From Candidatus Omnitrophota bacterium (GTDB taxonomy: Bacteria > Omnitrophota > Gorgyraeia > Gygaellales > Profunditerraquicolaceae): DNA of 64,000 nt. The notes under the pieces are model-generated. The model was not told the origin of the DNA. It searched no databases and was given only the letters and a program-made list of their open reading frames with translations. The translations under genes were made by a program, and so were the position numbers. The stretch's first letter is position 1; each line of letters opens with the position of its first letter. Shown in pieces: positions 17,246 to 28,996 of the stretch. The DNA is taken from the NCBI GenBank assembly GCA_050012075.1, contig JBEKHW010000003.1:14690-78689 (forward strand), read 5' to 3'.

Positions 17246-19117
17246 TTATTCGTAAATTAAATTGATCTTAAATGTTTCTTCGGGCTTAGCCATTTTATCA
17301 GGAAAATGTCCAAAAGGAGAAGCTTCTTTTATAGCTTTTACTGCTGGCTCAACCAGTGAATTGTCCGTAGTATTGATTATATCGGGTTCACCGATAAGAT
17401 TTCCGTTTTGAAGTAGCCTGAAACTGAGCAATACCCGCCCTTTCATCTTTTTAGGCCCGGCTGATTTTGCAACATTCTGGATTTTGGCGATGATTGATTG
17501 CCGGTAGTCAGAGGGAATTCCAGCGGCTGCCATGGAGTTTAATGATTCCGTCTCTACAGAGGTGGAAAATCTTTCAGTTACGATTTCTCCGTTTACCATT
17601 TTTGAGATAAAGCCCTCTTTTGGTTTTATATCGGAGAAATTTGAGTAAGGTTCTTCTCCTGTAATGATGTGGGGCGTCAGGAGAATTACAAGTTCATCTT
17701 TGGTTACCACGTCGCTTACACTGCGGAAGAGGAATCCTAATCCGGGAATGTCTCCCGCAAGGGGTATCTTTTTTACTGTTTTTACGTGTTTATCTTTGTG
17801 TAGCCCGCCGATAATAATCGTCACGCCATCTTTAACCATGACCGTTGTTTCTGCTTCGGATGTTGTCAGGTCAGGGACATCGGTCCCCTGGTCGTTCACC
17901 TCTACTTTAACAAGGGTTCCCTCGCTTATTTCAGGTTTAATCTTCATGGTTATAAAATTATCTCTGTTAATGGTAGGAGTAACATGCAGCTTGATGCCGG
18001 TTTCCAGAGTATTTGGCGTTACCGTGGTAGTTGTTGTTTGCGCATTCACGACTGCCGAAGAGGTCAGGTATGTCTGTTTTCTTCCGACAAGAATACTTGC
18101 TTCCTGGTTATTTGTAGCTACAATTCTGGGGCTTGAGATGATTTTTGTGTCGCCGATAGTGCGCAGGGCATCAAGCACCGCTTTATATTGGCCTGCTCCT
18201 GTAAGAGTGGTATTTGCCGTCCCAAGGGTGAGTCCGCCGACAGAACCACCAGGCAGGCTGCTTAATACCTTGAAATATTTTTCAATCCAGTAACCCCAGT
18301 CCACGCCCATTGTGAATGAATCCGAAGGAGTAATCTCAATGATTTGCGCGTCAATCAGCACCTGCGGAGTTTTTTCGTCAAAGGCCTTTATAATTCGGGC
18401 TATTTCTTTTAATTTATTCGGATAGTCAGTGACGACTACCTTATTTGTCCTCTCATCTTTTTTGACGCTGCCAATCCCTTTTGTGACCGCATCCTGGAGT
18501 TTTTCGCTTAACTTATCGGCTACGGCATAGTTGAGGCTAAAAACCCTGGTTTCCAGTGGCACATCTGCCTTAGAGATAAAATCCTGCATCGCTTTTATAG
18601 TTTCCGGAGAATCCATTAAAACCAATGTATTTGAACCGTCATCCGGCACTATCCTGCCGACATTAGTTTTCATCTGGGTCAGTGCCCGCGATAAATCCGC
18701 GGCCTTGGCATATTGGAGATGGACTATCTTTACTTCCTTTCTGTCTTTAAAGCGCCCGCCGTATGTCAGTTCATAATCCCTCTGGGTCATTACGTTAATG
18801 ATATTACCTTCCCGTATGTATGCCAGGTCATTAGCCAGGAGGATTATCTCAAAGGCGTCGAAGATATCTACATCCTTTAAAAAGAGCGTGACCTTACCGG
18901 TTACATTCTTACCGATAGCTAGGTTCATCCCCGAACGGTTTGAAATCATTTTAAGGACGTCTACGATATCCATCCCTTTTATATCCAGAGAAATCTTATT
19001 TTGCTGGCTGGCTGTGGGCGGTTGTGGAGCGGTCCCGGTTTCGTAGGCCTGCGCTAAGGATGGCATAGCGCCAGATAAAAATAAAATGAGAACAAAGATA
19101 AATTTATTTTTCATCAT
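17246..19117 (-). CDS. Secretin (GspD/PilQ family) with a C-terminal TonB-C-like domain
   Basis: 623 aa with a signal peptide, N0/N1 domains and a secretin core (IIGGLHKDK...IPLAGDIPGLGFLFRS). The C-terminal roughly 100 aa resemble the TonB C-terminal domain of ORF 2381-3091 (AIKEASPFGHFP...FKINLIYE vs SIKEAAPFPKFP...FNVAITFE). Confidence 0.8.
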   Translation of the reverse strand: MMKNKFIFVLILFLSGAMPSLAQAYETGTAPQPPTASQQNKISLDIKGMDIVDVLKMISNRSGMNLAIGKNVTGKVTLFLKDVDIFDAFEIILLANDLAYIREGNIINVMTQRDYELTYGGRFKDRKEVKIVHLQYAKAADLSRALTQMKTNVGRIVPDDGSNTLVLMDSPETIKAMQDFISKADVPLETRVFSLNYAVADKLSEKLQDAVTKGIGSVKKDERTNKVVVTDYPNKLKEIARIIKAFDEKTPQVLIDAQIIEITPSDSFTMGVDWGYWIEKYFKVLSSLPGGSVGGLTLGTANTTLTGAGQYKAVLDALRTIGDTKIISSPRIVATNNQEASILVGRKQTYLTSSAVVNAQTTTTTVTPNTLETGIKLHVTPTINRDNFITMKIKPEISEGTLVKVEVNDQGTDVPDLTTSEAETTVMVKDGVTIIIGGLHKDKHVKTVKKIPLAGDIPGLGFLFRSVSDVVTKDELVILLTPHIITGEEPYSNFSDIKPKEGFISKMVNGEIVTERFSTSVETESLNSMAAAGIPSDYRQSIIAKIQNVAKSAGPKKMKGRVLLSFRLLQNGNLIGEPDIINTTDNSLVEPAVKAIKEASPFGHFPDKMAKPEETFKINLIYE

Positions 19118-19123
19118 TCCTCC

Positions 19124-19723
19124 TTACAGGAAAAGTTCGAATTTCTCCCCCCTGTAATTTAAGATTATTTTTCCGTCCATGATTTTCTCAACCTGTATTT
19201 CTCCGATAAATTGCCCCGCGGTCAGATAGTATGTTTTCTGAGATCTCTTGTCTTCGATAACCGCCTGAGGGTTATCTCCGGAGATGATTCCTACAAGGGC
19301 GATATCCTTGACCATATCCGAAGTAGCCGCATTTATAGGCGAGCCCATCCCCTGCGTGGTTTGCGCCCCGAATATATTACGGTTTTTTAAATCACCGGCA
19401 TAAAATTCATACGGCTTTATTTCCGGCTTATCTGATATTTTGTTTTCGGCAGGGTTTTCTTTTGTGCCCTTGAGCATTTCAATTCTTTTGGAGCCGAAAA
19501 AAGGATAAACCAGTGAAAAGGAAAGATAAATACAGGAAATAATAAAGATCGTCCAGATTGCTTTATCCGTATTGAAATCAGCGGGGAGAAAAAAATTGAA
19601 GCGCGGTTTATTTCTTTCTTTAGATGCCTTGCCTTCTTTATTTAAAAGTGTTTCTTGCGGCTGTTTTTTTGGGCCTCGGATTAGTTTTAATAGTTTTTCT
19701 TCCGGTGCACTGGAGTCTCTCAT
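19124..19723 (-). CDS. PilP/GspC-like secretin-interacting protein
   Basis: 199 aa with an N-terminal TM segment, a C-terminal beta-domain, and a position between exeA and the secretin. The assignment rests on context and architecture only. Confidence 0.4.
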   Translation of the reverse strand: MRDSSAPEEKLLKLIRGPKKQPQETLLNKEGKASKERNKPRFNFFLPADFNTDKAIWTIFIISCIYLSFSLVYPFFGSKRIEMLKGTKENPAENKISDKPEIKPYEFYAGDLKNRNIFGAQTTQGMGSPINAATSDMVKDIALVGIISGDNPQAVIEDKRSQKTYYLTAGQFIGEIQVEKIMDGKIILNYRGEKFELFL

Positions 19724-27228: not shown

Positions 27229-28947
27229 TTATTCAGGAAGTTCTTCCTGTTGCGTGACGCGGATTACCTCGGTAAGCGTAGTCAGCCCCTTGGCGACCTT
27301 CTGCAGGCCGTCGTGGCGCAATGTGCGCATACCTTGGGATATGGCTTTCTGTTTTATCTGCTGGCTGGAGGCATGGGTTAAAATCAATTCGCGGATCGGC
27401 TCGGTAATGGTAATGATTTCATAAATGCCTGTCCTGCCGCGATAGCCCGTAAACCTGCATTCCTCGCAACCTTTGCCTTCATAAAATTCTATTTTGTGCG
27501 CGTCAAAAGACAACTCTTTGATCTGCGCCAGTATTTCTTCGCTGGGTTTTACAGGGGTTTTGCAATGCTGGCAGATAAGCCGCACCAGCCGCTGGGCAAT
27601 AAGGCATTCTAAAGATGAGGATACAAGGAACGGCTCAATCCCCATATCCAGTAACCTGGTTACTGCTCCTGCCGCGTCATTGGTATGTAGTGTCGAGAAA
27701 ACCAGGTGGCCGGTAAGAGCAGACCTTATGGCAATCTCGGCGGTTTCGTAATCCCTTACCTCTCCTACCATCATTATGTCAGGGTCATGCCTTAACATGT
27801 GGCGCAGCGCCACCGCAAAAGTGAATCCGATTTGCGGATTTACCTGAATTTGGTTAACGCCCCGCAACTGATATTCAATAGGGTCTTCTATGGTGATGAT
27901 TTTTACTGCCGCGGAATTTAGCTGCGCCAGGGACGCATACAGCGTCGTGGATTTTCCTGAGCCAGTCGGCCCGGTGACAAAGATTATTCCGTGCGGTTTC
28001 TTGATTACTTCTCTTATTATCTTAAGGTCCTCGGGAAACAGGCCCAATTTTTCAAGCTCGAGGAAGAAACGTGAACCAAGGATTCTGATATGCACTGCCT
28101 CTCCGAAAGCAGTAGGAAGTGTAGAGACACGTAAATCAACCTCTTCGTCATTGACCCTTATTTTTATCCTTCCATCCTGCGGCATCCTGCGTTCAGCTAT
28201 ATTAAGCTTAGCCATGATTTTTACGCGCGAGACGATTGCCGGGTGGAAATATTTTATGGTCTCTGGTATGTTTATATCATAAAGCACGCCGTCAATCCTG
28301 AACCTGCTGCGTAATTCATTCTGAAATGGCTCAAGGTGAATGTCGGTTGCCCTGTCTTTGATTGCCTCTGATAGCACCTGGTTTACAAACTTGATAATCG
28401 AGGCGTCTTCCGCAAGGGCCTCCAGGTTTAAGTTCTCGGCGGTGTCCGTTGACATCTTTAACTCTTCTGTAGGCGGCTTCTGCGCAATCATCTTCTCCAG
28501 GGTCTCGGCACCTACGCCGTAATATTTACGTATTGCCTCGAGGATTTCTATTTCACTTGCCAGGACACCCTTTATCTCAAACCCTAAGAGCAGGCGGATA
28601 TCATCAAGGGTCCGTATATCCAGGGGGTTTGTCATGACAATAGTCAGGACATTATCCTCAAATTTTAAAGGTATTATTTTATAGTGGCTGGCGAATTTCG
28701 CGGGAACCTTCTGGATAACCAGCGGCTCAATATCCTTATCCGCAAGCTTTACGTAAGGGATATTTAAGTGGCGGGAAAGCAGGTTAAATATCTTTTCTTC
28801 CGAGGCAAATCCGAGCTTGACTAAGGTGGTACAGATGAATTCCCCTGTTTTACGCTGCTCTATGAGCCCTACTTCAAGCTGCTCCGGGGTAATTACCCCC
28901 TCTTCTACCAGGAATTCTCCTATAAGTATATCGTCTCTTTCCGGCAT
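27229..28947 (-). CDS. gspE: Type II secretion ATPase GspE
   Basis: 572 aa with a T2SSE N-terminal domain, Walker A GPTGSGKST, Asp box, Walker B, His box, and a tetracysteine CQHC...CEEC. Confidence 0.85.
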   Translation of the reverse strand: MPERDDILIGEFLVEEGVITPEQLEVGLIEQRKTGEFICTTLVKLGFASEEKIFNLLSRHLNIPYVKLADKDIEPLVIQKVPAKFASHYKIIPLKFEDNVLTIVMTNPLDIRTLDDIRLLLGFEIKGVLASEIEILEAIRKYYGVGAETLEKMIAQKPPTEELKMSTDTAENLNLEALAEDASIIKFVNQVLSEAIKDRATDIHLEPFQNELRSRFRIDGVLYDINIPETIKYFHPAIVSRVKIMAKLNIAERRMPQDGRIKIRVNDEEVDLRVSTLPTAFGEAVHIRILGSRFFLELEKLGLFPEDLKIIREVIKKPHGIIFVTGPTGSGKSTTLYASLAQLNSAAVKIITIEDPIEYQLRGVNQIQVNPQIGFTFAVALRHMLRHDPDIMMVGEVRDYETAEIAIRSALTGHLVFSTLHTNDAAGAVTRLLDMGIEPFLVSSSLECLIAQRLVRLICQHCKTPVKPSEEILAQIKELSFDAHKIEFYEGKGCEECRFTGYRGRTGIYEIITITEPIRELILTHASSQQIKQKAISQGMRTLRHDGLQKVAKGLTTLTEVIRVTQQEELPE

Positions 28948-28967
28948 AAAAACTCCTTGAATGAAAT

Positions 28968-28996
28968 ATTATACTTTACTGCGGCTAATCTTGCAA
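28968..28996 (-). promoter_or_regulatory. Sigma70-like promoter for the gspE operon
   Basis: On the minus strand: TTGCAA, a 17 nt spacer, then TATAAT, followed by an AAGGAG RBS before the gspE ATG. Confidence 0.45.

Follow-up and report, generated by a model that had tools for sequence, protein, structure and literature searches.

An Omnitrophota locus in Xps gene order that probably encodes a divergent type II secretion system with a PilM-PilN-like GspL

Type II secretion systems (T2SSs) and pili of the MSH class have been placed as derivatives of type IVa pili (T4aP), and atypical T2SSs have been described outside Proteobacteria (Denise et al., PMC6668835). The Xps T2SS of Xanthomonas, which has no pilotin and encodes its prepilin peptidase outside the cluster, has its genes in the order XpsE, F, G, H, I, J, K, L, M, C, D (PMC11981180). 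The mannose-sensitive haemagglutinin (MSHA) pilus of Vibrio cholerae is built with MshI, a GspL-like member of the PilN superfamily, together with the PilO-like MshJ, the ExeA-like MshM and the cyclic di-GMP (c-di-GMP)-binding ATPase MshE, its PilT being unlinked and acting in trans (PMC4624765); the MSH model of Denise et al. has MshA, MshL, MshM, MshE and MshG as mandatory components (PMC6668835). Type IV pilus genes are dispersed over several loci in 99% of cases (TXSScan, PMC4793230). A fusion of PilM with PilN is the accepted architecture of GspL/PulL (PMC10191384, PMC4471445). Here we compare with these systems a locus of Candidatus Omnitrophota lying within a 64,000-nt stretch of contig JBEKHW010000003.1 (assembly GCA_050012075.1, positions 14,690 to 78,689; the window), which a preliminary description had presented as an unusual mix of secretion and pilus machinery.

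Fourteen genes, all on the minus strand, are packed between positions 28947 and 17246 of the window (~12 kb); from E through D, neither overlaps nor gaps exceed 60 nt. They are transcribed in the order E-F-(inserted four-helix-bundle gene)-G-H-I-J-K-L-M-MerR-ExeA-like-C-D. The genes that had been named beforehand (E, F, G, H to K, a PilM-PilN fusion, M, MerR, an ExeA-like gene, a homology region (HR) protein, a secretin and PilT) are all present and all on the minus strand; the four-helix-bundle gene at 25595-25999, between F and G, had been overlooked. We think it likely, though with considerable reserve, that the locus is the Omnitrophota version of a T2SS in Xps gene order and, by analogy, that it would secrete proteins. 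Its genes are as follows.

27229..28947, minus strand: E, assembly ATPase of 572 aa, with a GspE/PilB-family core, a tetracysteine motif and a full-length MshEN-type N-domain at residues 9-145 (Pfam T2SSE 461 bits, MshEN 73.5 bits)
26018..27226, minus strand: F, inner-membrane platform protein of 402 aa (GspF TIGR02120 401.5 bits, cutoff 424, versus PilC 324.5 and 313.4 bits; Pfam T2SSF in two stretches)
25595..25999, minus strand: inserted four-helix-bundle gene of the '23S rRNA intervening sequence protein' family, not a component of the machine (PF05635 92.7 bits, TIGR02436 95.8 bits)
25189..25602, minus strand: G, major pseudopilin GspG with a GFTLIE prepilin N-terminus (TIGR01710 105.8 bits, trusted cutoff 88.85; Pfam T2SSG 72.3 bits; best PDB match GspG 5wda at 1.3e-16)
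24726..25205, minus strand: H-position minor pseudopilin with an N-methyl motif, assigned by operon position (weak matches to GspH, 24 bits, XpsH, 23.5 bits, and ComGD, 32.6 bits)
24389..24754, minus strand: I, minor pseudopilin (GspI TIGR01707 33.5 bits, E 4.5e-8, below cutoff; XpsI 30.7 bits)
23781..24392, minus strand: J, minor pseudopilin (Pfam T2SSJ 44.3 bits, above the cutoff of 28; NCBIfam GspJ 34.8 bits, below cutoff)
22837..23775, minus strand: K, GspK-like tip pseudopilin of 312 aa without Glu at +5 (T2SS_GspK NF037980 35.0 bits, E 1.1e-8, profile positions 2-240 of 307, below cutoff)
21334..22776, minus strand: L, PilM (without subdomain 2B)-PilN fusion of GspL topology, 480 aa (Pfam PilM_2 34.7 and PilN 34.6 bits, both above cutoff)
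20825..21337, minus strand: M, bitopic GspM/PilO-family partner of L, 170 aa (Pfam T2SSM 31 bits, cutoff 27.8; GspM_XpsM NF040576 49.7 bits, cutoff 60)
20525..20785, minus strand: small MerR-type winged-helix protein (MerR_1 54.7 bits), whose open reading frame (ORF) overlaps the start of the ExeA-like gene by 14 nt
19720..20538, minus strand: soluble AAA+ ATPase of the ExeA/GspA/MshM family, 272 aa (AAA_22 62 bits; TIGR03015 188 bits, below cutoff)
19124..19723, minus strand: C, bitopic GspC/GspB-type protein with a C-terminal HR domain (T2SSC 23 bits, cutoff 27; T2SSB 17.7 bits)
17246..19117, minus strand: D, secretin with N0, two ring domains (two Secretin_N), the barrel and a C-terminal TonB-C-like domain (residues 536-622)

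These assignments were made with Pfam, NCBIfam (trusted or equivalog cutoffs) and profile searches of the PDB, and AlphaFold2 models were compared by Foldseek. The hidden Markov model (HMM) E-values of the component matches range from 1e-8 down to 1e-186, which excludes chance. By profile, F, G (above the NCBI trusted cutoff), I, J, K and the HR-domain protein C fall on the T2SS side, and the ATPase core and the secretin are ties between T2SS and T4aP. A single locus in the order E-F-G-H-I-J-K-L-M-C-D, inserts aside, is the T2SS arrangement, and the same order was found in 45 related loci, in Xanthomonas and in Comamonas. In contrast to the usual scattering of T4aP genes, all components but the prepilin peptidase lie in one operon. 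The GC content across E-D is 40–49%, the exceptions being the inserted gene and the MerR gene.

G carries the SDIQ...DTGHFP stretch described for it beforehand and scores above the trusted cutoff for GspG, whereas the PilA-type major pilin of a T4aP was not recovered (PilA_Myxo 33.7 bits versus a cutoff of 400, with matches confined to the N-terminal helix). Precomputed domains of K orthologues contain a weak T2SSK_1st in L048 and a faint T2SSK_1st or HHH_3 in L001 and L049. The platform protein F, taken from the outset to be of T2SS type, matches the GspF profile 77 bits ahead of PilC. The four-helix-bundle gene between F and G overlaps the gspG start by 8 nt, has a GC content of 35.6% as against 44–49% in the flanking F and G, and was found in none of 46 related loci (tblastn). 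From this absence and the low GC we conclude that the gene entered the operon recently, and it looks like a selfish or mobile element.

The protein at the L position is the main source of the locus' mixed appearance. It consists of a cytoplasmic actin-like domain (residues ~16-308), a SLDFLP/NLLP motif (311-316), a transmembrane (TM) helix with a coiled coil (317-391) and a periplasmic ferredoxin-like domain (397-479). The PilM-PilN fusion proposed earlier for this position was borne out, since Pfam finds PilN in 25/25 and PilM_2 in 24/25 orthologues and T2SSL or GspL_C in 0/25. Searched against the PDB, the L family profile matched Myxococcus PilM (7.9e-20), Thermus PilM (3.6e-10), Pseudomonas PilM (1e-6) and Myxococcus PilN (0.0036), and no GspL, EpsL or PulL chain up to E = 10. 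A canonical GspL hidden by poor annotation was thus ruled out: neither Pfam, NCBIfam nor the PDB gave a GspL signal. With the AlphaFold2 model of L (predicted local distance difference test, pLDDT, 87.4), Foldseek retrieved PilM (1.8e-18 to 1.4e-14), then FtsA (~1e-12) and then the cytoplasmic domains of EpsL/GspL/PulL (6e-9 to 6e-8; the best GspL value was 5.8e-9, compared with 1.8e-18 for PilM).

In construction, L has traits of GspL. HMM alignments omit ~35–55 PilM residues (Thermus 224-287, Pseudomonas 224-271) at the site of subdomain 2B, which GspL also lacks. The phosphate-binding motifs of PilM, GIDIS and DIGAT, have become FICQI and DIDSx in the L family, so that nucleotide binding has probably been lost, as far as these motifs can tell. 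Alignment to the engineered Pseudomonas PilM:PilN(1-12) crystallisation chimera 5EOU passes uninterrupted through the artificial junction into INLLP; SLNLLP is near-invariant at residues 311-316 of the family, the window copy having SLDFLP. After the junction the AlphaFold2 model has a long helix with a transmembrane segment, followed by the ferredoxin-like domain. L therefore has the GspL architecture (fused, no 2B, one TM helix) while lying outside the GspL profiles: it is GspL in architecture, on the fusion and missing 2B, and PilM-PilN in sequence, on the Pfam and PDB matches. It looks like a less-derived GspL. An exhaustive HMMER search with the L family returned 1,165 clusters (50% identity) at E ≤ 1e-30; nearly all of the best 150 are full-length fusions of ~440–550 aa, about a dozen being shorter fragments, and among ten clusters looked up the few with names were from Omnitrophota, plus one 'Nitrospirota' metagenome-assembled genome (MAG). 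A wider, word-indexed search for the family added only distant PilM/FtsA-like proteins.

The M protein is ambiguous at the family level. The window copy, first called PilO, matches GspM profiles and not PilO, whereas its orthologues split (n = 27: PilO 17/27, T2SSM_b 14/27, T2SSM 10/27); M family profiles had no matches in the PDB. A profile check proposed with the earlier hybrid reading, under which assignment of L and M to the GspL and GspM families would make the system a canonical T2SS, thus came out divided: L was not assigned to GspL, and for L the hybrid claim survives, whereas the window M was assigned to GspM, with its orthologues divided. The separate PilM, PilN and PilO with a lipoprotein PilP of a T4aP were not found, PilM and PilN being fused here and PilP matching 0/25 orthologues of C.

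The ATPase E had been called T2SS-type, which proved not to be specific. As a whole protein it scored 618.8 bits with NCBIfam GspE (cutoff 630) versus 617.8 bits with PilB. Its core (residues 169-572) gave a tie against the PDB (V. vulnificus GspE 429 bits, Geobacter PilB 425, V. cholerae GspE 420, Myxococcus PilB 418). The long MshEN-type N-domain (residues 1-168 as searched) matched Thermus PilF (139 bits), PilB (93 and 79 bits), the MshE N-domain (58 bits) and, weakly, XpsE (20.5 bits); XpsE supplied the sole T2SS N-domain detected, and the Vibrio N1E domain gave no match in the PDB profile search. Such an N-domain is not restricted to pili, because a Comamonas GspE carries one too. Over aligned residues, E is 44% identical to that Comamonas GspE (residues 8-568), 46.5–48.3% to canonical GspE (aligned region ~145-570) and 39.6% to an Aeromonas msh-like ATPase. 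The c-di-GMP motif model NF053729 scored 50.7 bits on E, above its cutoff of 38. Of the MshEN consensus RLGxx(L/V/I)(L/V/I)xxG...Q, motif I of the E orthologues keeps the hydrophobic, Gly and Gln positions, but at the RLG Arg 30/30 have Leu, Ile, Phe or another residue, and motif II is degenerate. Binding of c-di-GMP by E is therefore uncertain, because the RLG Arg is gone in all 30 orthologues examined though the domain model scores above cutoff.

The four genes after M are a small MerR-like gene, lying between M and the ExeA-like gene as previously described, then the ExeA-like ATPase, C and D. The ExeA assignment held for the family, the best plasmid match being annotated 'exeA: general secretion pathway protein A' (34% identity), and failed for the full protein: only a soluble 272-aa AAA module is present, without the membrane or peptidoglycan-binding part of ExeA. 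The protein upstream of the secretin, described as PilP/GspC-like, is there and is of the GspC/GspB type, not the PilP type (T2SSC 25/25 orthologues, best 4.3e-8; T2SSB 17/25; PilP 0/25); its family profile found the HR domain of enterotoxigenic Escherichia coli GspC in the PDB (3oss_C, 0.0041). C has an N-terminal cytoplasmic segment and a TM helix, not a lipobox, and no PDZ or coiled-coil domain. In the cytoplasmic N-terminal peptide, of consensus SPEEKLLRLIRG, residues P7, E8, E9, L11, L12, L14 and I15 are invariant; by analogy to ExeA-ExeB, this peptide may tether the soluble ExeA-like ATPase, which makes it a candidate docking site. C is the sole GspC-like protein in the locus and may thus do the jobs of both GspB and GspC.

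The secretin D scored 263.2 bits with PilQ, 254.9 with GspD, 181 with MshL TIGR02519 (cutoff 250) and 170 with HofQ/PilQ, GspD and PilQ both being below their cutoffs. No AMIN domain was found in it (Pfam). Foldseek ranked GspD, ExeD and PulD before InvG and PilQ (GspD 8e-24 versus PilQ 3.7e-20), with a full model of low confidence (pLDDT 65.6). Its C-terminal domain (window 17246-17650) is modelled as alpha-beta-beta-alpha-beta at pLDDT 85–90 and matches TonB_2 (20 bits) and TonB_C (18 bits) weakly. TonB_C or TonB_2 occurs on ~44 of 120 listed secretin orthologues, some of which are named 'TonB family protein', and the domain is also present in L048:16095-18008. It occupies the place of the pilotin-binding S-domain of model GspDs, and may stand in for a pilotin by anchoring D in the envelope.

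Conservation was assessed by a scan of one genome per species, which yielded 45 loci, and by tblastn with the window proteins (46 related loci). The 45 are labelled Omnitrophota or Omnitrophica (39), 'uncultured Planctomycetales' (5) and 'bacterium' (1). The block E-F-G-H-I-J-K-L-M is kept nearly everywhere. MerR-ExeA-C-D follows M, directly or 2–6 kb on, in 26 of the ~35 loci long enough to tell and is located elsewhere in the rest; it therefore behaves as a separable module. Together, the MerR-type protein, the ExeA-like ATPase, C and D probably form a 'secretin module' acting in secretin assembly or its control. Identity across loci is 52–80% for E (mostly 69–80%), 46–82% for the ExeA-like protein (66–82% in all but one) and 57–86% for the MerR-type protein. 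Genes for a receiver, an HD-GYP protein and a monogalactosyldiacylglycerol (MGDG) synthase stand downstream of D in five loci (L023, L032, L033, L037, L044), as in the window. Departures from the common plan were also seen: a second K-like and L-like pair (22% identity) immediately upstream of E (L010:360-2736), L directly after E with F-K located elsewhere (L019:3-2994 and L034:8266-11404), and G upstream of E (L045:2013-2387), several loci having no G between F and H. Public annotation of these same orthologous genes varies among PilM, PilN, GspD, PilQ, MshL and 'TonB family protein'; for L itself, an identical (100%) protein in a Candidatus Omnitrophota MAG carries the name 'pilus assembly protein PilM'.

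Among described systems, Xps resembles the locus in the order of E through M and then C, D, in the prepilin peptidase outside the cluster, in the lack of a pilotin and in a C protein that is a small HR-domain protein without PDZ. The Xps-specific NCBIfam models XpsF, XpsH, XpsI and GspM_XpsM are among the matches of the locus, and the N-domain of XpsE is the one T2SS N-domain that E recovered. Unlike Xps, the locus scores below equivalog cutoffs throughout save for GspG, its L matches PilM/PilN and not GspL, MerR and ExeA-like genes stand between M and C (Xanthomonas is without GspA/B), and its secretin has the TonB-C-like tail. A plasmid cluster of Comamonas odontotermitis (NZ_CP083452.1) has the same order, annotated by PGAP as gspE-F-gspG-GspH/FimT-pilin-pilin-GspK-'PilN domain-containing protein'-gspM-hypothetical-gspD. 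Among plasmid proteins, its GspE, with a long MshEN-type N-domain, matches E best over the full length; M and D are separated by a small hypothetical gene; and its L-position 'PilN domain-containing protein' also escapes GspL models, so such L proteins do occur in T2SS-annotated clusters. In contrast to the locus, the Comamonas cluster lacks MerR or ExeA-like genes and has a secretin of 817 aa and an L of 438 aa only marginally similar to the Omnitrophota L (hhalign E 0.009). It is not an experimentally studied system. When the families of L, M and C were aligned by hhalign to the individual Comamonas proteins, all scores were marginal. The pairing of an ExeA-family AAA+ gene with a bitopic HR-domain protein (T2SSB-matching, as above) and a secretin recalls ExeA-ExeB (GspA-GspB) of Aeromonas/Vibrio, with the differences that the ATPase here is soluble, without TM segment or peptidoglycan-binding domain, and that a MerR-type ORF precedes and overlaps its gene.

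The pilus systems share other traits. Like MSHA, the locus encodes a type IV filament machine at a single site, with a GspL-like fusion, a GspM/PilO-family protein, an ExeA-like ATPase gene adjoining the secretin gene and an MshEN N-domain. Unlike MSHA, it has GspG-K in place of the pilins MshA-D/O-Q, a different gene order and no counterpart of the tetratricopeptide repeat (TPR) protein MshN; its MshL profile score is below those of PilQ and GspD, and the RLG Arg is missing from E. Judged on sequence, the pilin set, gene order, MshL score and ATPase similarity favour T2SS over MSHA here. Likeness to the PilM-PilN-PilO-PilP assembly of T4aP lies in the cytoplasmic domain of L, closest to PilM in sequence and fold, in the retained NLLP motif and periplasmic domain of PilN, and in the many M orthologues that match PilO. 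In contrast to T4aP, the locus joins PilM and PilN in one protein that lacks 2B and has degenerate phosphate-binding motifs; it has neither a PilP lipoprotein nor an AMIN-domain PilQ, a PilA-type pilin or PilY1, and one operon replaces several loci. In a 4.9-Mb Aeromonas caviae record of the plasmid collection, evidently a chromosome (L047, NZ_AP026896.1, 324635-366308), we also noted an unannotated msh-like locus (secretin, truncated ExeA-like gene, ATPase, platform) broken by identical 424-aa ORFs of the insertion sequence type.

Outside the operon, the following genes and site of the window bear on its function.

56877..57923, minus strand: PilT-family retraction ATPase, unlinked to the locus (TIGR01420 457 bits, above the cutoff of 319)
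29787..32072, minus strand: exported alpha/beta-hydrolase, lipase-like, with a CHSMGG motif, a PGAP1-like match and a signal peptide (GC 36.4%); candidate substrate only
16759..17133, minus strand: response-regulator receiver encoded on its own downstream of the secretin, possibly regulatory
15580..16746, minus strand: GAF-HD-GYP protein, putative c-di-GMP phosphodiesterase and possible regulator (HD_5 135.7 bits plus GAF)
28968..28996, minus strand: sigma-70-like promoter match TTGCAA-17-TATAAT directly upstream of the ATPase gene (10/12 positions), weak, such sites in the region being no more frequent than the shuffled expectation

The pilT gene, reported beforehand at this place away from the locus, is 28 kb off and sits between genes for large (58015-59286) and small (56380-56880) subunits of the aconitase/isopropylmalate-isomerase type, all on the minus strand, and after this stretch come genes for isocitrate/isopropylmalate and malate/lactate dehydrogenases. 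Within the 64-kb window there is no other filament gene or prepilin peptidase besides this locus and pilT. T4aP have been reported in most Omnitrophota genomes, accompanied by an F-type ATPase (Seymour et al., PMC10066038). Identity of our locus with that 'T4aP plus symbiotic F-ATPase' locus was considered and rejected: a crude motif scan detected no F1 alpha/beta Walker motifs within ≤10 kb in the 46 loci or the window, and three Pfam-annotated neighbourhoods of related loci contained no ATP synthase genes. Given no F-type ATPase in the 46 loci, the reported Omnitrophota T4aP is probably another locus, which PilT could serve. As to cargo, secretion of the nearby lipase had been named as one possible function; a role of the lipase as dedicated substrate is not supported by synteny: among the 46 related loci the gene gave one partial 44% match, at the edge of L040. 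An immunoglobulin (Ig)-domain protein encoded near it (32738-34303) also has a signal peptide, and both proteins are plausible substrates. Upstream of E, an Rfam scan for a c-di-GMP riboswitch or other RNA found none, the sole match in the window being a cobalamin riboswitch elsewhere.

Several of these observations weigh against a T2SS. In each sequence comparison L belongs with PilM/PilN, without a GspL match in any profile set, and PilO is the majority match of M orthologues. The ATPase core and the secretin score equally as T4aP proteins. F, I, J (NCBIfam), K, M (NCBIfam), C and D all score under curated cutoffs, a PilT gene is present in the genome, and the locus has no linked secretion substrate, since synteny hardly extends to the lipase-like gene. 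In addition, MSHA provides the precedent of a single-locus machine with a GspL-like fusion and ExeA-like and MshEN-type ATPases that builds a PilT-retracted surface pilus (PMC4624765). The locus might, then, build a true extracellular retractable pilus, MSHA-like or T4aP-like, for attachment of ultra-small Omnitrophota to hosts, prey or surfaces, with E extending and the unlinked PilT retracting it. PilM, which L resembles, is the known docking site for PilB and PilT, the N-domain of E is of the PilB/MshE type, the secretin has an ExeA/MshM-like ATPase for a neighbour, as it does in msh loci, the window contains PilT, V. cholerae MSHA works with the GspL-like MshI, MshM, MshE and an unlinked PilT (PMC4624765), and Omnitrophota have been reported as pilus-rich, possibly predatory bacteria (PMC10066038). 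We nevertheless regard a pilus as unlikely. Its major subunit would be a GspG equivalog above the trusted cutoff, with the PilA score far below its own; a GspK-type tip protein is present and a PilY1-like adhesin is not in the locus; the HR-domain protein is of the GspC/B type and not a PilP lipoprotein; the MshL score is below those of GspD and PilQ, and no MshN-type TPR gene stands between the secretin and ATPase genes; the genes follow the Xps and not the msh order; E is nearer to GspE than to the Aeromonas msh-like ATPase; and most Omnitrophota genomes are reported to hold a separate T4aP (PMC10066038), to which PilT could belong.

Mixed families, with L pointing to T4aP and G, F, J, K and C to T2SS, could also mean a genuine chimera, in which a T2SS pseudopilus, platform and ATPase recombined with a T4aP alignment module of the PilMNOP type, and the chlamydial T2SS has been described as chimeric (PMC6668835). 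This we find very doubtful: the L and M genes occupy the very places that L and M have in a colinear gsp/xps order, and the arrangement is kept in all 45 related loci, so that any recombination would predate their divergence. Moreover, L already has the GspL topology (fused, no 2B, degenerate ATP motifs), the even GC content from E to D is interrupted only by the four-helix-bundle and MerR genes, and C is GspC-type rather than PilP-type, hence no PilMNOP block was imported. A competence pseudopilus for DNA uptake, to which weak matches of the minor pseudopilins to ComGC, ComGD and ComGE profiles, the pilT gene and the HofQ/PilQ resemblance of the secretin (170 bits) might point, is highly improbable, as the Com matches are confined to the shared N-terminal prepilin helix, neither the locus nor the 64-kb window contains a ComEA, ComEC or DprA gene, and G, J, K and C are T2SS-type. 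It is quite unlikely, too, that the locus is a surviving T4aP-to-T2SS intermediate, with T2SS-like periplasmic and filament parts and a pilus-like cytoplasmic interface (PilM-type domain, NLLP in cis, PilB/MshE-type N-domain) on which PilT could dock, giving a retractable dual secretion/attachment machine in ultra-small, possibly predatory bacteria; if true, this would offer a direct experimental handle on the origin of GspL from PilM plus PilN.

The T2SS reading thus needs no mixture of two machines, as the earlier hybrid reading had it: a PilM-PilN fusion is the normal build of GspL, the gene order is that of Xps, C is of the GspC type, and the Comamonas cluster annotated as a T2SS too has a PilN-domain L. 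The 'hybrid' look stems mainly from one assembly protein that still reads as PilM and PilN joined, which is GspL's own build. A divergent, less-derived T2SS, that is, a lineage-specific variant with ancestral T4aP-like features, describes the locus better than a hybrid does. The picture of Denise et al., with T2SS derived from T4aP, accommodates a T2SS whose fastest-diverging assembly proteins are still T4aP-like in sequence.

The working of such a system can be sketched by analogy with studied T2SSs. The gene content, order, families, domains and conservation are as observed; secretion, all protein contacts and any c-di-GMP control are inferred. Hexameric E would dock on the PilM-like cytoplasmic domain of L and on the platform protein F, and L would pair with M in the inner membrane, the two forming a platform. 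G would be polymerised into a short periplasmic endopilus, primed or capped by a tip complex of I-J-K (and H). The bitopic C would connect the platform of L and M with the N0 domain of secretin D, through which folded exoproteins would be pushed out. The MerR-type protein, the ExeA-like ATPase and C would constitute a module for assembly of the secretin or for its control, and the receiver and the GAF-HD-GYP protein may give regulatory input.

Other features of the window were noted in passing. A low-GC stretch of ~5 kb (29059-34303, minus strand) lies between a seven-transmembrane (7TM)-GAF histidine kinase gene and gspE, its genes having 30–39% GC versus 44–48% in the neighbours; it encodes a 154-aa membrane protein, the exported lipase-like hydrolase, a TPR-like protein and the exported Ig-domain protein, is non-syntenic elsewhere, and may be an island of exported cargo. 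In L001 a kinase, a receiver gene and one further gene stand upstream of E in its place, the kinase being similar to those of the window and the kinase and receiver pair separated from gspE by one gene. Paralogous 7TM-GAF histidine kinase genes (34392-36575 and 46541-48709, minus strand) flank a lipid/polyketide-type cluster with three ketosynthase (KS) genes, one ketoreductase (KR) gene, one FabA-like gene and a cyclase/dehydrase gene. An amine-oxidase/phytoene-desaturase-like gene (36588-38129, minus strand) has a GC content of 31.6% (27% at third positions), compared with 40% in the adjacent paralogue (38140-39600), and an AbiEii-type nucleotidyltransferase toxin gene (40175-40906) paired with an HTH_3 gene (39649-40209, minus strand) lies between the KS-KR-FabA cluster and the amine-oxidase genes. 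The cobalamin riboswitch (RF00174, 11453-11665, minus strand, 78.8 bits) stands upstream of an ABC transporter of the B12/siderophore type and a cluster for cobalamin salvage (CobU, CobS, CobT, BtuR; ~5.8–12.3 kb), and a TonB-dependent receptor gene is found at 3115-4968.

For the field the locus is incremental, being neither a new category nor a true chimera; it is a well conserved system that is poorly and inconsistently annotated, and the intermediate traits of its L are instructive. Surveys of Omnitrophota treat type IVa and Tad pili, and do not treat this locus as a T2SS (PMC10066038). Recognition of it as an Xps-order T2SS would alter models of exoprotein export in a phylum thought to attack or depend on other cells. 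The conserved MerR/ExeA-like/HR-protein/secretin module and the TonB-C-like tail suggest pilotin-free secretin assembly. L, which keeps NLLP, lacks 2B and aligns through the junction of the PilM:PilN(1-12) chimera, offers a concrete model for the evolution of GspL.

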